This document shows, in pieces, positions 6,701-63,807 of a DNA stretch of 64,000 nucleotides (the first letter of the stretch is position 1; each line of letters starts with the position of its first letter). Below the pieces are notes generated by a model. The model worked only from the letters and a program-made list of their open reading frames with translations. It searched no databases and was not told the origin of the DNA. The translations under genes were made by a program, and so were the position numbers. The stretch is from a virus, in the IMG/VR virus record IMGVR_UViG_3300025132_000023, positions 1-64,000 of that record, one strand, 5' to 3'.

Positions 6701-9700
6701 TAGTATCGCCTGCTATTAAAGAAATTGAGGTGTTTGTATCACCAGCATCGTTTCTAATTACTAGAGTTCCGTTATTTGCACTAACAACGGAGTCAAAATT
6801 CACAGATAGGTTATTATATAACATCTTCATTCTAGGATATTTTATGCTTTCTAAGACTGGTAATTTAGAAGTTGTAGGTAAAGTCTCATAATTTACAGGA
6901 TTGAAATGCCAATCGAAAGTGGCTTCTACCAAACGCATTACTCCGAATCTTTTCATATTTGCGGGAGTAATAGAAGCAGATTTAATTGTCATTGTATCGT
7001 AGTCTGAATCTCTTTGTCGGGTAGAAGGTGTTGAACCTGTATAGTTTGTATGGGAAATACTACCACCAGAAGTGCCTTCATCTTCTAACATTAAACCAAA
7101 AGACGTAAATTCATGAGCATCTGCGGCATAGGCTATATTATTATGTCGAAGTTTAGAATCAATGTGTATATCTCCAAGCCCTAGAATTTCATAGTTTTTA
7201 GCCCTATAGTCGATGTTTTCTAATTGTTCTACTAAGTGTCCACCTGATGTATGAATACCTACTCCTGTACCTGTGGGGTATTGAGTTGGAGGCTTTCTTG
7301 AAGTTGCCATTCCTAAAAAGCCACTTGTCCAAAAATTAGAACTTCTTGCTGGATACTGTGAGTTTGTTATATCATCAGCAGTTACAATCGCAGTAGGAGA
7401 ACCCGCATAATTTACCTTATATGCTGAACAATAGCCCTGTAGATTCTGTTTACTGGCTGCATCGTTATAAACGCTATCATATGTTTGGTTTATAGTTCCT
7501 GCCTTAAACTTGTTTAATGCAGTATATCTAAAAATACTGTCTCCAAAGTAATAATTAGTGTCTAATGTGCTAGATAGTTTATGTAAGAATCCTCCTTTAG
7601 GAATACTACTATTTACTAAATATATACCAGTTGTTCCTGTTCCTCCCCCTAATGCAGTATCAGAAGTATTTTCTTCTATACTACCTAATACTAATGGGAA
7701 CGTAGGTGCTAATGAAATTACGGAGTTAGATTCATCTTTAGTATTTATTCCTGTAATAGTATATGGACTAACGCTAGATGTTGTTTGCATGGGGTTGATA
7801 GTTCTACCTGCTTGAGTTTCATGTGCTAATTTAAAGGCAAAACAAGAATCTTTTCCTCTTGTTATTCCTTTAATGCTTGTAATGTCATATCCTAAACTTT
7901 CATCTGACGAGTAACTTCCAGTAGCAGAAGAATATAATAGGTCACTTTTAGTATTTGTTGTCCCAGAATAAAGATTCTTTATGCCTGTAACAAAATTACA
8001 TCCATTATTTCCTAAGTGTGCATAGTCTGTTGGATATACTGTATCTTGTATGTTAGACCCTAATGCTTTAGTCCCAGTAAGATAACCTTGTGTCCCTCCT
8101 AATCTATGAAACTTTAACGCCCTGCTGCCATTAGTAATTGTAGTTCTATTATTATGTGTAAAGACTATGACAGTAGTTCCAGAATTGTCTGTAACAGTAG
8201 ATACTTCACCAAGATACTTATTGTTATAGAATATTAAGTCATGTTTATTTAGTTCTTGTAATGAATCAAGAGAATCGCTTAATGTTATTCCATTTGTTTG
8301 AACTGAGTTAACAGTATAAGTAGCGTCTAATAAATCTGTAAAGTCTATTATAGGGTTTAAAGAAGAATATACAATATCATTCGTTCGTTCCAAATTTTTA
8401 TTAATACTATTATCTAATAGAGCAGAAATTTTATCCCTGCCTGTAATAGTATAAACTATATTACCATGTTCATTCCTTGAAGATATATCTTCTACACTCC
8501 CTATAAATGATGTTTCTTCCATAGAATAGTTGCCTTCCATATAATATAAGAAAGAAATATTATTAGAAGGAATATAAAACTTCTTGGTAGGGTTTCTTAA
8601 TTTAATGTGTCCATTAATAGAATCCCCATAGTCTACTGGTATGTTGTGTCCATAGAATTGCTTATTCAAAAACACTATCTTATTATCATATAGTCTAGTC
8701 TTTGTTTTTGTAACTGTTTTACCATTTATGGTAAGTCTTGCTAATGAATTAGAACTGTATACTCCTTCAGTATCTATTGGCATTGCTCCTGTTAAACCTC
8801 CATTCCAAGCACGAACAAATACATTCTTATTAGATACCGATGGTAATGTCCCAATGGCCTCCCATGTTCCTCCAATTAATGTTTTCTTTTTATCTACAGT
8901 AACGGCTTGAGTCCTTAAACTATCAGAAGGGGCCGCTACTGAGGCAACCCTATAGAATATATCATTAAATCTTATTATGTCACCAGCAGATAAGAAAGAA
9001 TCGTTTCTAGCATCAAATCCTTCTCTCACTTGTTGTAAAACAATAGTTTGACCAGAAGTAGTTTCTGTAGATGCTAAATATGGCAACTCATATTCAGACA
9101 AACTTCCTCTATGTAAAGATGTGCTAATAGTAAATTTATCATCTTCTTTCATTTTAAGGTGCTTTACACCAGACTCATCTACTGAGGTAACAGTTGCTGA
9201 TTGAGTTATTCTATTCTGAGGACTATTTAAACTGGTAGGGGATATAATATTAGTCACACCGTTGTTTCTGTTTTTAGAGTCTTTAAAGTATAAGTATCTA
9301 CTAGGCCCAGACAAGTCTCCTGTAATTAATTTATATGTTCCTGCTGGATTATAACTAGAATGTTCTGATGTTCTATCAGATGCGTTTCTAGTGTAGTTTC
9401 TAAAAGTATTTACCCACTCAGAAGGATTAATAGTATATGTAGTGTTTCTATCTATTTCATTCCCCGCTTCATCTTTAACTTCAGTATTATCAACTAAAAT
9501 ACCATGATGGTTTTTACTTCCTAAGTCTCTTACTCTAGCCCCATATTTCTTTTCTGTTTTAAACACGGCATGGTGTATCGTCCTGCCATAGTAAAGATAA
9601 TTAGAAGTTCCACTAATTGTACCGAAATTATATCTTATTTGGTCTAAGGTGACAGTATTGGCACTATTATCATAACTAGTAACTATTCCTCCATGATGAT

Positions 9701-56679: not shown

Positions 56680-57616
56680 TGTCTATTAGGACGTATTACG
56701 GTATTACAAGGAGTAAACGCCAGCACTTGCGCGGTGTTAATAGAACTCTATTCATAAATAGAGCCTAAGCGGTAGTTCGTAGTTAACACAGCGGCAGGGT
56801 GCTTGGTCGTTTACTTCCTTGTAATACCCAAATGTCCATATAAGACATTGCCCGATAAATGGGGATATATGCCGTTACACTAACATGAAATGTATTCACT
56901 CCGTTGCATTGGAGAGCAAGAGTAAATTCCGGGACGTTTAGACTCTTGCTTTAGCAATCCCTGCACATTACTCTGCTCTCCAATCCTCTACGTTTACATA
57001 CATTTCATTACACTACCATATGGTTACTTAGTCATGGAGTAAGGCAAGAATGTGCGTATTCAGTCAGGCTCCTAAGAGTCTGAGTCTAAATGTGGTGAAT
57101 ACCGCATTCTTGCCTTACTCCGAGCAAGATAATCCCATATCGGGTTCTTTTGATTTATGGTCTGTCTCAAACAGTTCAGATGCTAATCATAAACTTTTAG
57201 CAGAGACAGTACCGCTTAGGCTGAGTCTTACGACTCCCTTATGCACGCTAACTACCTCCGGCTGTTATCGTACCGCTAAAAGATTATGTTAACATCATCA
57301 CAACTCACCAGACCTTTTCTTTTTTAATTAACAACCATATGGTTTAGTAAGTGGTTGGTTTAAGGCGGGAACCTATGTAGAATGTTAAACACGGCTGTTC
57401 TTAAGAACGAGCCTAAGCGGTAGTGTTGGAAATTCTACCGGGTTCCTCGCCTTAAGCACAACCCTACATAACCAGACATCGGGTAACATTCGGTTAATCC
57501 CAACATTCACTCCGTAGTATCTCCTGAACGGAACCTGTATTGACATTTAGATTAACGCTTAAGCGTTCATACTTGGTTCCCTTCAGGTTATCTCACTTCG
57601 TTCATTTAACCTCACT
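56680..57616. repeat. Three double-hairpin non-coding units (U1-U3)
   Basis: Long imperfect stems, e.g. GGTATTACAAGG 56700/CCTTGTAATACC 56817 and GGAGTAAGGCAAGAATG/CATTCTTGCCTTACTCC at about 57036-57121, each with the conserved loop motif. Confidence 0.85.
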
Positions 57617-57664
57617 ACCATATGGTAGGCTGTGCTTTGCTAACAGAATGCCCGATAACGGGAC

Positions 57665-57907
57665 TTACTTCATTGTTACGATTTTACAGCAATTACCCAT
57701 TTTTACTCTTAAATCGCCTAATTCCATTCCGCAGTTATTACATATCTCAATCATTATTTTTACATCCATTAAACCAGCACCAATAGAACGAGGAATCACA
57801 TTCTTTACAATCAGGAGGGAGAGTATCTCTCATTCCTCTCCCCCCTTTTTACCAATAGCATATATTCTACAAAACTCTGCATGAGCCTTTAACAAGTTCC
57901 AACTCAT
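57665..57907 (-). CDS. Three coupled micro-ORFs (57830-57907, 25 aa; 57747-57833, 28 aa; 57665-57754, 29 aa)
   Basis: MSWNLLKAHAEFCRIYAIGKKGGEE; MRDTLPPDCKECDSSFYWCWFNGCKNND; MIEICNNCGMELGDLRVKMGNCCKIVTMK; each start overlaps the previous stop. Confidence 0.55.
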
Positions 57908-58626
57908 TCTTCTTCCCCCATTACAAGTTTAGTTGTTTCTGGGGAGCATTGATATGAAGCCTCACTAATTATCTTCGTTTCGCAATCAACAGTATGTGTT
58001 ACTTCACAAGCACTTAATTCTGTAAGGGTACTTTCTACTGCCTTGCGTATTCTTAGCATCTCTGCCAATGGGACTTGAACAACTCTATCTTCTACTGCCT
58101 TTCTATCTGTTATTGACTCCACTTCATAAGTAATCCAAAAGGTTAGAGTGTAGGTATGACCGTAATTATCAAGTCTTGTTAACAAAGTTACGTTATCGTC
58201 ATATTTCAGCATGGCTCTACCATAAAAGGACTGTGTGCCATTAGTAGGCCCAAAGTAAATACCTAGATATGGGCCTCTTACGCGCATCCACTTATCCATA
58301 GTCTTTGTAGTCTGAACTACGGCTACATCAGTATTAATACCATAGTCTGTCAATCCCTTCTGTGCTAGTCTTGCTTGACTACTGTAATCTAACTCCATAA
58401 GGACTTGACCGTTTTCATCAGTTACTGCATAAGTAGTGGTTGTATCGTCCGTTGATTGAAAGCCGTATAATCTAGCATCATCCTCAGGATTATCATAGTT
58501 ATAGTTACTAGTCTGTGCTATGCCTCTATCATACAACATACTCTGCACCTTATTAGGGTGAAAGTTGACTTCTGACATATCTGTATCAAAGACTATTTCC
58601 ATTTTTCTCTCATAGATAGTCATCAT
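57904..58626 (-). CDS. Hypothetical protein (cassette 1)
   Basis: 240-aa ORF; AGGTGA RBS; ATGA overlap with the upstream gene. Confidence 0.7.
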   Translation of the reverse strand: MMTIYERKMEIVFDTDMSEVNFHPNKVQSMLYDRGIAQTSNYNYDNPEDDARLYGFQSTDDTTTTYAVTDENGQVLMELDYSSQARLAQKGLTDYGINTDVAVVQTTKTMDKWMRVRGPYLGIYFGPTNGTQSFYGRAMLKYDDNVTLLTRLDNYGHTYTLTFWITYEVESITDRKAVEDRVVQVPLAEMLRIRKAVESTLTELSACEVTHTVDCETKIISEASYQCSPETTKLVMGEEE

Positions 58627-58826
58627 TCATCACCTATCGCTTCAACGTAGTCTGATAGTGCAGATTGCATATCAGCCATTACTTCCTTTAGGTTATCACC
58701 AGATACTCGTAGTTTGCTAATACATAGAACAAGGGCAGACCCCGATTTCATATGCTTAACTTCTAGCACGTATTTTGGCTCAGTTATTGGTATTGTTTCA
58801 TTATTCTCGTTCATCATTTGAATCAT
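58623..58826 (-). CDS. Small hypothetical protein, probably leaderless (cassette 1)
   Basis: The track start (58880) lies inside the palindrome; ATG 58826 is about 25 nt downstream of the TGATATAT box. Confidence 0.55.
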   Translation of the reverse strand: MIQMMNENNETIPITEPKYVLEVKHMKSGSALVLCISKLRVSGDNLKEVMADMQSALSDYVEAIGDE

Positions 58827-58885
58827 TCTTATGTTGGGAGATGAATATATCAGGTGAGTGTTAGCAAAGCACACTACCATATGGT
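58824..58885 (-). promoter_or_regulatory. Cassette promoter: ACCATATGGT-n-CTTTG-n-CACCTGATATATTCA-n-CATAAGAATG
   Basis: Nearly the same element recurs at about 59979-60041; variants at about 59540-59586 (-) and 61173-61212 (+). Confidence 0.6.
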
Positions 58886-58931
58886 TTGCTTTGCGTTAAA
58901 CCGGAGAGGTGGAGAGGGGCGCAAAACCCAC

Positions 58932-59471
58932 CTATTCCTCCTCATCGCCTCCGATGAAGGATACCACAGGATAACCGTTCTCATCATAAGAACCATCCCA
59001 ATGGTATTTCTTTGACATATCTCCGTTTGCGTGTGCATTGAATGCCGCATTAAGGAACAATCGCTCCTTCTTCACGCCATCCTTAGCAAAGACAGTTTCA
59101 CCGTCTGTTAGGGTGTTGTAAAGAACTCCACCCGACTTACCGTGGGTTCTTGCCGTAGCATAAACCGCAGGATAAACCACATCGCGTAGGCTGATGTAAA
59201 GCGTATCATTAAGGTAAAGGTCGAAGGAAGACTTCGTTGCCGTATCCATAAGGGACTTTCGGCCCTGTCCAATGGGCGAATTTGCCACATCGGTGAATAC
59301 ACCTACAATGCTGTTCCAATATCTCTTACGAGTGCTTGGGTTAGCATCACCGAGAGCGAACATTGAACGCACAATCATTGCCAAATCGCTTTGGTCTGGA
59401 TTAACTGCGAACCACTCTTCAAGGTCAGTTTTCTTTGTTTCCCACTTGCTGTCATCTATTTCATTACTCAT
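58932..59471 (-). CDS. HGKS-motif protein, paralog A (cassette 2)
   Basis: 179 aa; aligns by eye with 61278-61787 (W..K, GD.N.STR...NSI, R.HGKS.G, WDGS). Confidence 0.75.
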   Translation of the reverse strand: MSNEIDDSKWETKKTDLEEWFAVNPDQSDLAMIVRSMFALGDANPSTRKRYWNSIVGVFTDVANSPIGQGRKSLMDTATKSSFDLYLNDTLYISLRDVVYPAVYATARTHGKSGGVLYNTLTDGETVFAKDGVKKERLFLNAAFNAHANGDMSKKYHWDGSYDENGYPVVSFIGGDEEE

Positions 59472-59601
59472 GTTATCAATCTCCGAAAAGGTTTGATAGG
59501 TTTGCGCCCCTAAAATTCCTCTCCATTATTATAATTCGGTATGAACATATGAGGTGTGTTTAATACAAAGTAACACACCATATGGTTTTACTTTGTGTCA
59601 A

Positions 59602-59981
59602 AAACCAGACGGGAGAATTGCTCAGATTTAAACATGGGCTAAACTACCGTGATTCCATGTCTGAGGCTTACGATTCTCCGCTAAGAGTCTGAATGGGTTT
59701 TGTTTCGTGCTTTCCTAAGGCACTCTCAGACCCGACTGAGCAAATGAAGTGGATATTGGACTCTCTTTCGATTACCAATAAAGACGCATGGGCGTTAGTT
59801 CTACATATCTTTGAGTATACAGTTCTAACCCGCGCTTACCCCGTATTACCCCGCTAAGGGTGTTGTCCTGCCTTTCCTTTGTAAGAACGACTCGGTGGCC
59901 CGCTAAGGCCCAATACGGTTGCTTTACACCCTAACGATGGTGTTATTCAGCCAATCCGTGGTGACTCGCGAAGGTCACCAT
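59602..59981 (-). ncRNA. Putative ~380-nt structured non-coding RNA (cassette 3)
   Basis: Lies behind the same promoter as cassette 1; only a 12-codon ORF follows the ATG; many GC-rich hairpins, three capped by an identical UUAGCG loop. Confidence 0.55.
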
Positions 59982-60041
59982 TCTTATGATTAAGGGTGAA
60001 TATATCAGGTGCAATTGACACAAAGTATCACACCATATGGT

Positions 60042-60950
60042 TTAGTAAGTATGCAAGTTAAACTTGCAAAGGGAGGGAGTTAAACTCAGGTGTAAGGGCC
60101 AAAGGCCTAATCTAAATGTTGCCTGAGTGGACTCCTCAGTTTGCAAGTTTAACGCCAGCATCTACATAACCAGATTTGAAAATCTGGTACTGGGTTATCT
60201 TGCATCGGCTAAAGGTAGACTATGAGCAGCACGAACACTAAGGCTCGTATTCTTAGGAACACGCCTTGCTGCTACTATTCTACCTTTAGACGCTGACTAA
60301 GTAACCTTAATACCATATGGTAGTAGAAAGGTCTTTTTAGTATATTGGTGCTATAAGAATAATATATATGTGAGTTCAAACTCAAGCCTAAGCGTTCATA
60401 TAAATTATTGTAGTTGCGTGCAACTGCCCTCTTATAGTGCGAATCTAATAAAAAGCATATAGAAGTCATCTTTTTACGCAGTAAAACGGGGCTTATTTTT
60501 GTAGGCTTTCAAGACCCCAATTTTCTCTGGTATGGTTATCTTGCTCCGAAGTGTATTCTGTTACTTGCAGCAACCACACTCAGGCTCGTAATCTTAGGAC
60601 TACGACTTGCTGCAATTAACAGCATACACTCCGTTGACTAAGTAACCTAATACCATATGGTTTGATAAAGTGGTTTGCGTTTAGACGCTAGTTTACAGAC
60701 GCAAAATCTACGGTCTGGTTTAGTAACAAGAGGTCACCAAAGTGACAATCTAAATGTCTCGCCAGTTAATCAACCAGAGCGTAGAGTTTGGGGCTTAAAG
60801 TAGCGTCTAAACGCATAACCCATATCATTCCCGATAAATAGGGTATGTATTCCACATAGCGAAAGCCGAAGGAGATAAACCTATGAACACTTAGGTTCTT
60901 GTTATGACAAGCCCTATGTTCACCTCCTTCAACCTCGCAGTTCCATCATT
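60042..60950. repeat. Three double-hairpin non-coding units (U4-U6)
   Basis: e.g. GTTAAACTTGCAAA/TTTGCAAGTTTAAC, TGCGTTTAGACGCTA/TAGCGTCTAAACGCA, GGTTATCTTGC...TGACTAAGTAACC (twice), with the same loop motif. Confidence 0.85.
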
Positions 60951-61277
60951 ACCATATGGTAGTATAATTAGAATTAGATGGGTTAATCGTATCTGTTAAA
61001 GTGTAGGATTCGGAACCCGTCCCTTGTGAATCGAATTAGCGGTCACCCGTGACCCCTGACCATTTTTCTTATTTCTCGTTTTTCCAAAACGCGATAATAA
61101 CCTTAACATCCTCGCAGAAAACGGCTTGTTTTTCCTTCTCGGCCTTTCAGACCCCTGAAAAACGCTATCATTACCATATGGTTCTGCTTTGCACGGAACC
61201 TCTTATATATCCGATGACTGTCCCAAGAATGCCCCCGAAACTTGGGCGCGAAAGAAAATACACATAGGTGATAAAAG

Positions 61278-61787
61278 ATGGAAGATATTGAGTGGGATTC
61301 AGTAAAGATAAAAGTAAGCACTATGCTTGAAGGTAACGCGGAAGTTGGAGACATTCCAGAAGACGTTGTTACTCTAGCACAGATGCTAATAACGACTGGT
61401 GACAATAACGCTTCAACGCGTGATTCGTTGACCAACAGCATTAAGGATATGCTAAAGCCCTACGCGGGTTATCCTTGGAAGAGAGGCAATCAGGGCATTC
61501 TACCTGCCGCAGCACGCGCAGTAGTGGATTCAGCAACTGATAACATCCGAGAGGCAGCAAGAGAGTTCTTTAACTCTACTTCGCAGTATTCTCAGCCCCT
61601 TCTACGAAAGCACGGAAAGAGCAAGGGTTCCCCTGTTTACTCCGATGCTGACGAGTATGCAAACGAACTTGCTTCAAAGGCTCGTAAGGCTGCAACACAA
61701 CTCTTCAAGGATGGAGAGTGGGATGGTTCGCTATCCGGTCTTGCTGCTTGTGCGGCTTATGACGACATAACCACGGAGGATGAGTAA
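61278..61787 (+). CDS. HGKS-motif protein, paralog B (cassette 4)
   Basis: 169 aa; AGGTGAT RBS; TTATATAT box near 61203. Confidence 0.8.
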   Translation: MEDIEWDSVKIKVSTMLEGNAEVGDIPEDVVTLAQMLITTGDNNASTRDSLTNSIKDMLKPYAGYPWKRGNQGILPAAARAVVDSATDNIREAAREFFNSTSQYSQPLLRKHGKSKGSPVYSDADEYANELASKARKAATQLFKDGEWDGSLSGLAACAAYDDITTEDE

Positions 61788-62124
61788 TTCTTCCTTCGTT
61801 AACCTAAGTTTCGGGGTGCAACTACCGGAGGGGGGAATAGGGCTTAAAGGCCTTATTTCCCTCTCCACTTCTTTCAGGTTTTTGCTGGAAGCAAAGCCCA
61901 GATAAAACCATATGGTAGTGTTTGGCTTCTTAACGGAGGGGGGCCGCGAGGGGTTCCGCACCGTTTATATGTTCTCACGAAAGGGTATGATTGCTTTCGG
62001 CATTAGCGTTCTATTAACGCAGAAAGAACCTAATCTGATAATTCCAGTATATGAAAGGACTCAGATTTATGGTGTAAAAAGTTACTGCCGTTAAAGAGTG
62101 GGGAAATTAATAGTGGACAATGAG

Positions 62125-62475: not shown

Positions 62476-63147
62476 ATGTTTCTATCGAAGGTGGAAAGAT
62501 GGGAGAAAGATGACGAGAGCAAAGTTTTAACAGGTGACAAAATGAGAACAAGTTGGACAAAAGCAGACATTAAGAAGTTGGTTCGGTTATGGAATAAAGG
62601 AACCAAGATAAAGGATATTCATAAAGAGTTTCCTAATAGAACCACAGGTTCAGTAACTAATAAGATTTATTCGTTACAACGAAGTGGTGAATTGGAGAGC
62701 CGTCATAAAGATGGCAAGAATCCACCAAAGAAAACAAAGGCTACTATTGGAGGAAGACCTTTGGATGACAAACATTACCCGTGGGAAGAAAAGGTTCCTT
62801 ATGGGAAATACCCTAAAGGATGGAAGAATCCTTGGGGTAAAACCACAGAGAATTTACAGAAGATGGCACAGGATTCAAAAAAGTGGGGCGAATCTGGGAC
62901 AGCAATCGTATCCATGATTGAAGAAATCAAGGAATTTTTGCTAACCAAGAATACGCAGTATGGAGATAGTGCGCTAAATCCAATACGAATTTTCTCAAAG
63001 GCGGATAAATCAGAACAACTTAAAGTCAGAATAGACGATAAGTTAAATAGACTCATGCAAGGTAACGCATCACTAGAGTCTGATGAAGACGTTATTAAGG
63101 ATTTAATAGGATATTTAATTCTATTACTAATCCATTTACGAGAATAA
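62476..63147 (+). CDS. Myb/GcrA-like HTH fused to an Nmad1/DUF1599-like helical nucleotide-pyrophosphatase domain
   Basis: WTKADIKKLVRLW...NRTTGSVTNKIYSL; KNTQYGDS...RIDDKLNRL...DLIGYLIL. The real start may be MRTSW at 62542. Confidence 0.65.
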   Translation: MFLSKVERWEKDDESKVLTGDKMRTSWTKADIKKLVRLWNKGTKIKDIHKEFPNRTTGSVTNKIYSLQRSGELESRHKDGKNPPKKTKATIGGRPLDDKHYPWEEKVPYGKYPKGWKNPWGKTTENLQKMAQDSKKWGESGTAIVSMIEEIKEFLLTKNTQYGDSALNPIRIFSKADKSEQLKVRIDDKLNRLMQGNASLESDEDVIKDLIGYLILLLIHLRE

Positions 63148-63720: not shown

Positions 63721-63807
63721 TGCGGGATTCCCAAGTATGGTCAAAGGGGCCGGACTTAAGATTCGGTGCGTAGTGCTTCGGGGGTTCAAATCCCCCTCCC
63801 GCAACCA
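63721..63807 (+). tRNA. tRNA-Leu(TAA) with encoded CCA
   Basis: Acceptor TGCGGGA/TCCCGCA, D-arm with GG, anticodon loop CTTAAGA, long variable arm, T-arm GGGGG-TTCAAAT-CCCCC, ACCA end. Confidence 0.9.

Follow-up and report, generated by a model that had tools for sequence, protein, structure and literature searches.

The 64,000-nucleotide stretch analyzed here (the window) covers positions 1 to 64,000 of the IMG/VR virus record IMGVR_UViG_3300025132_000023 and contains, between positions 57015 and 61916, an array of small units separated by one perfect palindrome, ACCATATGGT. Eleven copies of this palindrome are found, all within that region and none elsewhere in the 96,167-bp genome, with about 2 matches at up to one mismatch expected from shuffled sequence. 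The palindromes (referred to as joints) split the region into 10 units, of which four bear a promoter-like element (cassettes 1 to 4) and six are non-coding, each of the latter folding as a long hairpin. The array sits where leftward and rightward genes diverge and where the cumulative GC skew turns. The subject of this work is the inverted repeat that closes each of the four cassettes; we assign a probability of about 0.5 to the reading that these repeats are the boundary arms of self-contained transcription cassettes, kept alike by copying at the DNA level.

Cassette 1 (unit 57627-58875) lies between the palindromes at 57617..57626 and 58876..58885, the second being its joint with cassette 2, and contains two open reading frames (ORFs) on the minus strand, one of 240 aa (57904..58626) and a small acidic one of 67 aa (58623..58826). 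Its promoter-side arm (58859..58873, minus strand, with the box GCTTTGC on that strand) is followed by the putative promoter core CACCTGATATATTC, composed of ACC and a TATA-like element (58843..58856, minus strand), and its far-side arm (57631..57645, plus strand, box GCTTTGC) is followed by the small hairpin CCCGATAACGGG (57651-57662). The ATG of the 67-aa ORF is located 24 nt past the first T of the TATA-like element, and a leaderless mRNA is therefore predicted. Cassette 2 (unit 58886-59576) extends to the palindrome at 59577..59586, which joins it to cassette 3, and harbors one ORF of 179 aa (58932..59471, minus strand), with a far-side arm at 58886..58901 (plus strand) and a promoter-side arm at 59558..59573 (minus strand) whose box, ACTTTGT, is followed by ACC and TATGTT at ca. 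59543-59556. Cassette 3 (unit 59587-60031, right joint at 60032..60041) has no ORF; its cargo is a manA-like structured RNA (59746..59980, minus strand), preceded by a promoter-side arm (60015..60027, minus strand) and by the same predicted core found ahead of cassette 1, CACCTGATATATTC (59998..60011, minus strand), and on its far side the arm at 59589..59601 (plus strand) runs into five A at 59600-59604, that is, a T5 tract on the transcribed minus strand. Cassette 4 (unit 61183-61906), located between the palindromes at 61173..61182 and 61907..61916, the latter being the final one of the array, carries one ORF of 169 aa on the plus strand (61278..61787). Its promoter-side arm (61186..61212, plus strand) combines the box GCTTTGC, AACC and a TATA-like run about 70 nt ahead of the ATG, and its far-side box (61891..61897, minus strand, GCAAAGC on the plus strand) is preceded by a G+C hairpin at ca. 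61830-61866.

The original prediction, which described four private terminal inverted repeats, located them correctly. Cassette 1 pairs 57631-57645 with 58859-58873 at 15/15 positions; cassette 2 pairs 58886-58901 with 59558-59573 at 13/16 (best ungapped segment 11/13), its three mismatches all being transitions; cassette 3 pairs 59589-59601 with 60015-60027 at 13/13; and cassette 4 pairs GCTTTGC (61186) with GCAAAGC (61891) at 7/7. For shuffled 26-nt arms the best ungapped score averages 4.4, with a 99th percentile of 7 and a maximum of 9, so that the repeats of cassettes 1 to 3 stand above chance. The pair of cassette 4 is the shared core alone, and is no better than matches between cassettes (8/8 for its left arm with the right arm of cassette 1, 11/12 for the left arm of cassette 1 with its right arm). 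At the joint at 59577, moreover, the right arm of cassette 2 and the left arm of cassette 3 form a 17/21 palindrome across the joint, hence the right end of cassette 2 resembles its neighbor about as well as its own left end.

Concerning the nature of the virus, matches of its capsid protein are restricted to tailed viruses of haloarchaea and one of Methanofastidiosa, and we take the genome to be that of a magrovirus, one of the tailed viruses that infect marine group II archaea, which is consistent with its size and its marine IMG/VR relatives. Magroviruses count among the most abundant of all viruses infecting ocean archaea. Since the capsid matches archaeal tailed viruses and the magrovirus label fits, the signals of the array are read here as archaeal; a bacterial promoter of the Bacteroidota type, our first guess, was abandoned after the capsid indicated archaeal viruses. 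With the array-adjacent gene as query, 11 IMG/VR loci were obtained, 10 of which have arrays of 3-14 perfect palindromes (up to 23 including the 8-bp core), and the joint pattern, consisting of box, palindrome and box, is present in at least 119 IMG/VR stretches. A search of 596 Gb of cellular genomes yielded 34 stretches with this pattern, 33 of them single sites; the exception, NZ_NZTP01000027.1 (labeled as an Altibacter sp. metagenome-assembled genome, L169 in our numbering), is a 14.7-kb contig with five box-palindrome-box joints and is probably a mis-binned magrovirus fragment within a bacterial assembly. Palindrome-joined arrays are a family-wide, viral feature. No GenBank phage was matched by megablast with the array, and the magrovirus literature that we searched makes no mention of promoters, repeats or palindromes.

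The arms share a common anatomy, which was derived from 161 non-redundant coding cassettes. An RCTTTGY box occurs at both ends, reading outward from the palindrome and placed 2-12 nt from it on the cassette-inward side. Upstream of the gene, ACC(C/T) and an A/T-rich, TATA-like run come after the box, and on the far side a G+C hairpin of the ACCCC-gaa-GGGG type. Distances between this run and the ATG peak sharply in two ranges, at 25-29 nt (leaderless) and at 65-79 nt. The CTTTG core common to the four cassettes is thus not private but belongs to a box found across the family and, as judged from its surroundings, is a boundary signal of the transcription unit; the facing orientation of the two boxes of a cassette gives them the appearance of a terminal inverted repeat. 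Each promoter-bearing cassette has an RCTTTGY box inside both of its flanking ACCATATGGT palindromes. In the organization that we propose, the upstream box, together with ACC(Y) and the TATA-like element, would constitute an archaeal-type promoter, with transcripts starting either at the ATG or about 45 nt ahead of it, and the downstream box, together with a G+C hairpin or a T tract, would mark the 3' end.

The box often provides the loop of a small hairpin along with its closing pairs, and about one quarter of the arms fold as a hairpin closing C-TTT-G, as compared with 6% of shuffled arms. Across the 785 arms of all arrays, the bases beside the box pair as R..Y, with A-T and G-C enriched, G-T tolerated (96 observed vs 131 expected) and A-C avoided (21 observed vs 98 expected). 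This bias holds on the outward-reading strand, at promoter-side and far-side arms alike, which points to a structure on the single strand reading outward from the palindrome. Folding of the mRNA fails to explain it, because on the far side the outward strand is antisense to the gene. Arms that flank one palindrome are less alike than random arm pairs and fold worse together, as though long palindromes spanning a joint were avoided. A single long palindromic operator made of box, palindrome and box was rejected on this ground, and also because arms facing each other across a joint are no more alike than random and because the spacing between palindrome and box is variable.

In another reading the repeats would act as a stem at the RNA level: the 5' and 3' ends of a long read-through transcript would pair and release the cassette RNA, as occurs in ribosomal RNA precursors. 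The three mismatches of cassette 2, all transitions and two of them G.U on the plus strand, go in this direction, as does the structured RNA carried by cassette 3. Cassettes 1 to 3, however, have their genes on the minus strand, on which two of the three cassette 2 mismatches become A.C; the promoter-side arm, being upstream of the predicted start, would be missing from the transcript of its cassette; in the far arm, the strand that tolerates wobble is antisense to the gene; and no bulge-helix-bulge geometry is present. We consider such a processing stem very unlikely.

To quantify the likeness of the two ends, arms were aligned at CTTTG and 16 flanking positions were scored. The two arms of one cassette match at 6.07/16 positions (n = 343), other left-right pairs of the same genome at 5.35/16 (p = 4e-8) and the two arms flanking one palindrome at 5.00/16, and none of 1000 within-genome derangements reached the observed within-cassette match. 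The arms are hence cassette-borne and not junction-borne. The claim that ends of the same cassette match each other best is therefore sound as an average over the family; within the window it does not extend to cassette 4, whose arms match other cassettes better, nor to the right arm of cassette 2, which fits the left arm of cassette 3 about as well as that of its own cassette. The excess is concentrated in the six bases beside the core, and about 3% of cassettes reach 11/16, so that long perfect repeats such as those seen in cassettes 1 and 3 represent the tail of a distribution; the part of the repeats that is private to a cassette is real but modest.

The two ends had also been proposed to co-evolve. 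If arms drift independently, the right arm of the same lineage should match a left arm no better than the right arm of another lineage. In the cassette 1 family, arms of the same lineage match at 7.71/14 positions, as compared with 4.77 when right arms are permuted among members, and none of 2000 permutations reached the observed value. Identical arm pairs in this family are lineage-specific (for example tgtgC..Gctaaca, gtgC..Gactactacc, tatgC..Gcata and aatgC..Gcatt), and identities of 10-22 nt, counting the 5-nt box, recur with differing sequences in at least six lineages, the orthologue in the relative L010 having a repeat of about 17 nt. A concerted signal is found in cluster 0 (0 of 2000 permutations) and cluster 4 (34 of 2000). 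These comparisons indicate that in several cassette families the arms evolve in concert between lineages; co-evolution thus finds support in the cassette 1 family and in clusters 0 and 4, and in cassettes 2 and 3 close relatives show one-sided changes (see below).

A possible, though doubtful, explanation of these figures needs no interaction between the ends. A boundary consensus shared by all cassettes, combined with the exchange of whole cassettes whose arms are tuned to the donor, would give the extra likeness, and the long perfect repeats of the window would be a lucky tail. The core and the ACC element are indeed common throughout the family, the excess is small and confined to the few bases beside the box, close relatives show one-sided changes, and cassettes are gained, lost and replaced between relatives. 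What this scheme does not account for is that arms co-vary between lineages even inside single orthologous families, and a shared consensus does not predict the lineage-specific identities of 10-22 nt in the cassette 1 family.

Comparison of relatives shows that units are gained, lost, moved, replaced or inverted (for example between L008 and L011, or in the pair W/L017). L008 and L011 share 13 units at 88% identity, of which four have moved and three are inverted. These three are non-coding, and score 100-153 when aligned in inverted orientation and below 0 in the same orientation. Upon in-place inversion, the outer palindrome bases change from C..G and T..T to C..A and C..T; this is exactly what a crossover in CCATATGG predicts, which maps the crossover inside the palindrome. 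A cassette of the cassette 2 type has been inverted in L021 with both of its arms. The non-coding hairpin units are the kind that is moved and inverted in relatives; those at 56680-57616 and 60042-61172 form long hairpins with a recurrent CTAARYG-like loop motif, one per strand. The unit at 60032-60312, compared with positions 7555-7844 of the closest relative, L005, shares only its first 134 nt (97%) and has its second half replaced; exchange therefore takes place inside units as well as at palindromes.

Coding cassettes in the arrays are co-oriented 92:12, and in 9 of 9 metagenome contigs that carry the cassette 1 arm of the window the promoter arm abuts cassette 2 and is never flipped, with the proviso that assemblies hide minor forms. 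Recurrent inversion of cargo cassettes is therefore unlikely. The description of the cassettes as mobile or invertible mini-cassettes accordingly survives as regards units that are moved, replaced and inverted in relatives with a crossover inside the palindrome, and is not supported as regards recurrent flipping of the cargo. For the same reason, namely that coding cassettes nearly always keep their orientation, frequent flipping is an unlikely cause of the matched arms.

In a site-specific alternative, palindrome and arms together would form an attC-like, single-stranded cassette exchange site. In an excised circle or a looped strand the arms would pair with each other over the palindrome, selection for this pairing would make them co-evolve, and a viral or host enzyme of no known family would cut inside CCATATGG. 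Besides the location of the crossover, this accounts for arms that are alike within cassettes and not across joints, and for the strand-specific tolerance of wobble pairs at both ends; furthermore, the hypothetical junction of a circularized cassette folds slightly better than that made from other arm pairs (-9.04 vs -8.39 kcal/mol, p = 0.01). The gain in pairing is small, however, and most cassettes share little past the 7-nt box. The spacing between palindrome and box varies over 2-12 nt, the cassettes have predicted promoters of their own, the order and orientation of coding cassettes rarely change, and the genome contains no known recombinase family. On balance we regard an exchange site of this kind as unlikely.

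The explanation that we favor, boundary arms kept alike by DNA-level copying, would combine these observations as follows. The arms travel with their cassette when relatives reshuffle units through crossover inside the palindrome, and their likeness would be upheld by copying between the two inverted joints of a cassette, each consisting of palindrome and arm, either through gene conversion or through template switching primed at the identical palindromes. Several results weigh against this reading. No gene conversion or template-switch event was directly observed. Searches of the 96-kb genome gave no match to Phage_integrase (PF00589), with positive controls matched, nor to Resolvase (PF00239), Hjc or Y1_Tnp. 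The family-wide excess is small, few cassettes reach 11/16, and clusters 1, 5 and 6 (cassette 4) gave no concerted signal in the permutation test. Changes in close relatives can be one-sided: at one position of cassette 3 the two arms read C/C in the window, C/A in L005 and A/C in L017, and in cassette 2 the left arm is fixed and the right arm drifts. The strand-specific wobble hints at a functional single-strand hairpin, and selection for pairing may thus act beside neutral copying. Finally, it is from the sequence alone that we infer the promoter and terminator roles of the arms.

The cargo proteins bear on one more alternative, namely that each cassette is a miniature transposon with terminal inverted repeats recognized by a transposase such as the 240-aa protein of cassette 1. 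The size of cassette 1 (1.2-1.6 kb), its two ORFs and its repeats, 15 nt long here and about 17 nt long in the L010 orthologue, speak for this. None of the cassette proteins had a match in Pfam or PHROGs, solved structures searched with a profile of the 240-aa family gave insignificant matches only, and the predicted fold of the 240-aa protein (pLDDT 80) had no Foldseek match at E<=0.001, the resemblances being to generic alpha/beta folds at Z<=6. No transposase family was thus found for this protein, and the acidic 67-aa protein matches no DNA-binding family. In addition, the repeat of cassette 3 is equally good and encloses no ORF, and units are always found between palindromes and only inside arrays. 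A transposon origin is in our view barely credible. The properties of the 67-aa protein likewise led us to discard a regulator encoded by the cassette and acting on its own arms.

Regarding the remaining cargo, cassettes 2 and 4 encode paralogous proteins on opposite strands, with a shared HGKSKG/HGKSGG motif, a W..DG motif and an acidic C terminus, and such paralogues occur in most relatives. The RNA of cassette 3 matches manA (Rfam RF01745) with 46.4 bits, below the gathering threshold of 55.2 (E ~1e-9), all of model positions 1-192 being matched, and it starts 1-2 nt past the start site predicted from the TATA-like element of its cassette. It stands here as a gene of its own with its own predicted TATA-type promoter in an archaeal virus, and not as the 5' leader of a bacterial or cyanophage gene. 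A 2026 preprint reports cages assembled from manA RNAs.

To the right of the array, the first gene (62476-63147, plus strand) is conserved beside it in 10 relatives. Its product has an N-terminal, helix-turn-helix-like part, with weak PHROG matches to regulators and to the helix-turn-helix of transposases, and a strongly conserved C-terminal domain (phrog_1485), and is a candidate palindrome-binding protein. A tRNA-Leu gene (anticodon TAA) follows at 63721-63807 on the plus strand, just right of the array. The palindrome was also considered as a host restriction site and this was rejected, as CATATG is not avoided in the genome (48 copies vs 32 expected). GATATC, CCATGG, ACATGT and GAATTC, on the other hand, have no copies in 96 kb, as compared with 10-32 expected for each, which looks like restriction-site avoidance.

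Taken as a whole, the array suggests a grammar for magrovirus accessory genes, in which joint, box, promoter, cargo, 3' hairpin, box and joint follow each other, and it shows a route by which accessory genes and structured RNAs are reshuffled between viruses. Cassette-borne arms, concerted evolution and strand-specific structure beside the box narrow down what the joint can be. Should the joint prove a true recombination site, it would represent an integron-like system of archaeal viruses with no known recombinase.

Among known systems, insertion sequences and miniature inverted-repeat transposable elements share with the array the presence of inverted repeats, but here there is no transposase family and there are no copies outside the array palindromes. 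Shufflons (Rci/sfx) and the Hin and Gin systems also invert segments bounded by short repeats with a crossover within the repeat. They differ in that no serine or tyrosine recombinase (PF00239, PF00589) was found in this genome, in that the site here is a perfect palindrome and so has no orientation, and in that coding units are nearly always co-oriented, inversions affecting mainly non-coding units. Integrons resemble the array through small mobile units, through the imperfect inverted repeat of attC with its conserved core and unit-specific arms, and through hints of single-strand structure. Here, in contrast, no integrase is present in the genome, each cassette has its own putative promoter whereas integrons use one common promoter, the repeat is split over both cassette ends around a shared palindrome whereas attC lies at one end, and pairing of the arms is weak in most cassettes. 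Correction of quasipalindromes by template switching (the Ripley model) is known for arms tens of bases apart. It offers a route to likeness without inversion for imperfect inverted repeats beside a perfect palindromic primer site, as would apply here, but the arms of the array are 0.4-1.6 kb apart and no event was seen.

By analogy, the closest relatives in organization appear to be the cassettes bounded by promoter-early stem-loops (PeSLs) in T4-type phages, where a motif of promoter and stem-loop bounds small genes of unknown function in a hyperplastic region, and where PeSL recombination yields insertions, deletions and replacements between close relatives, mini-circles having been shown (Arbiol et al. 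2010, PMC2839356; Comeau et al. 2014, PMC4122927). In both cases the small genes of a variable region are bounded by copies of a composite regulatory motif, and repeat-mediated recombination distinguishes close relatives. The array is nevertheless not a member of that class, since promoter type and host domain differ: the host is archaeal and the predicted promoter TATA-type, whereas PeSLs have a sigma-70-type promoter and a bacterial host. Also particular to the array are an invariant, perfect 10-bp palindrome that serves as joint and crossover point, an inverted box on both sides of each unit with concerted, cassette-specific extensions, and the occurrence of structured RNAs and long hairpin units among its units.

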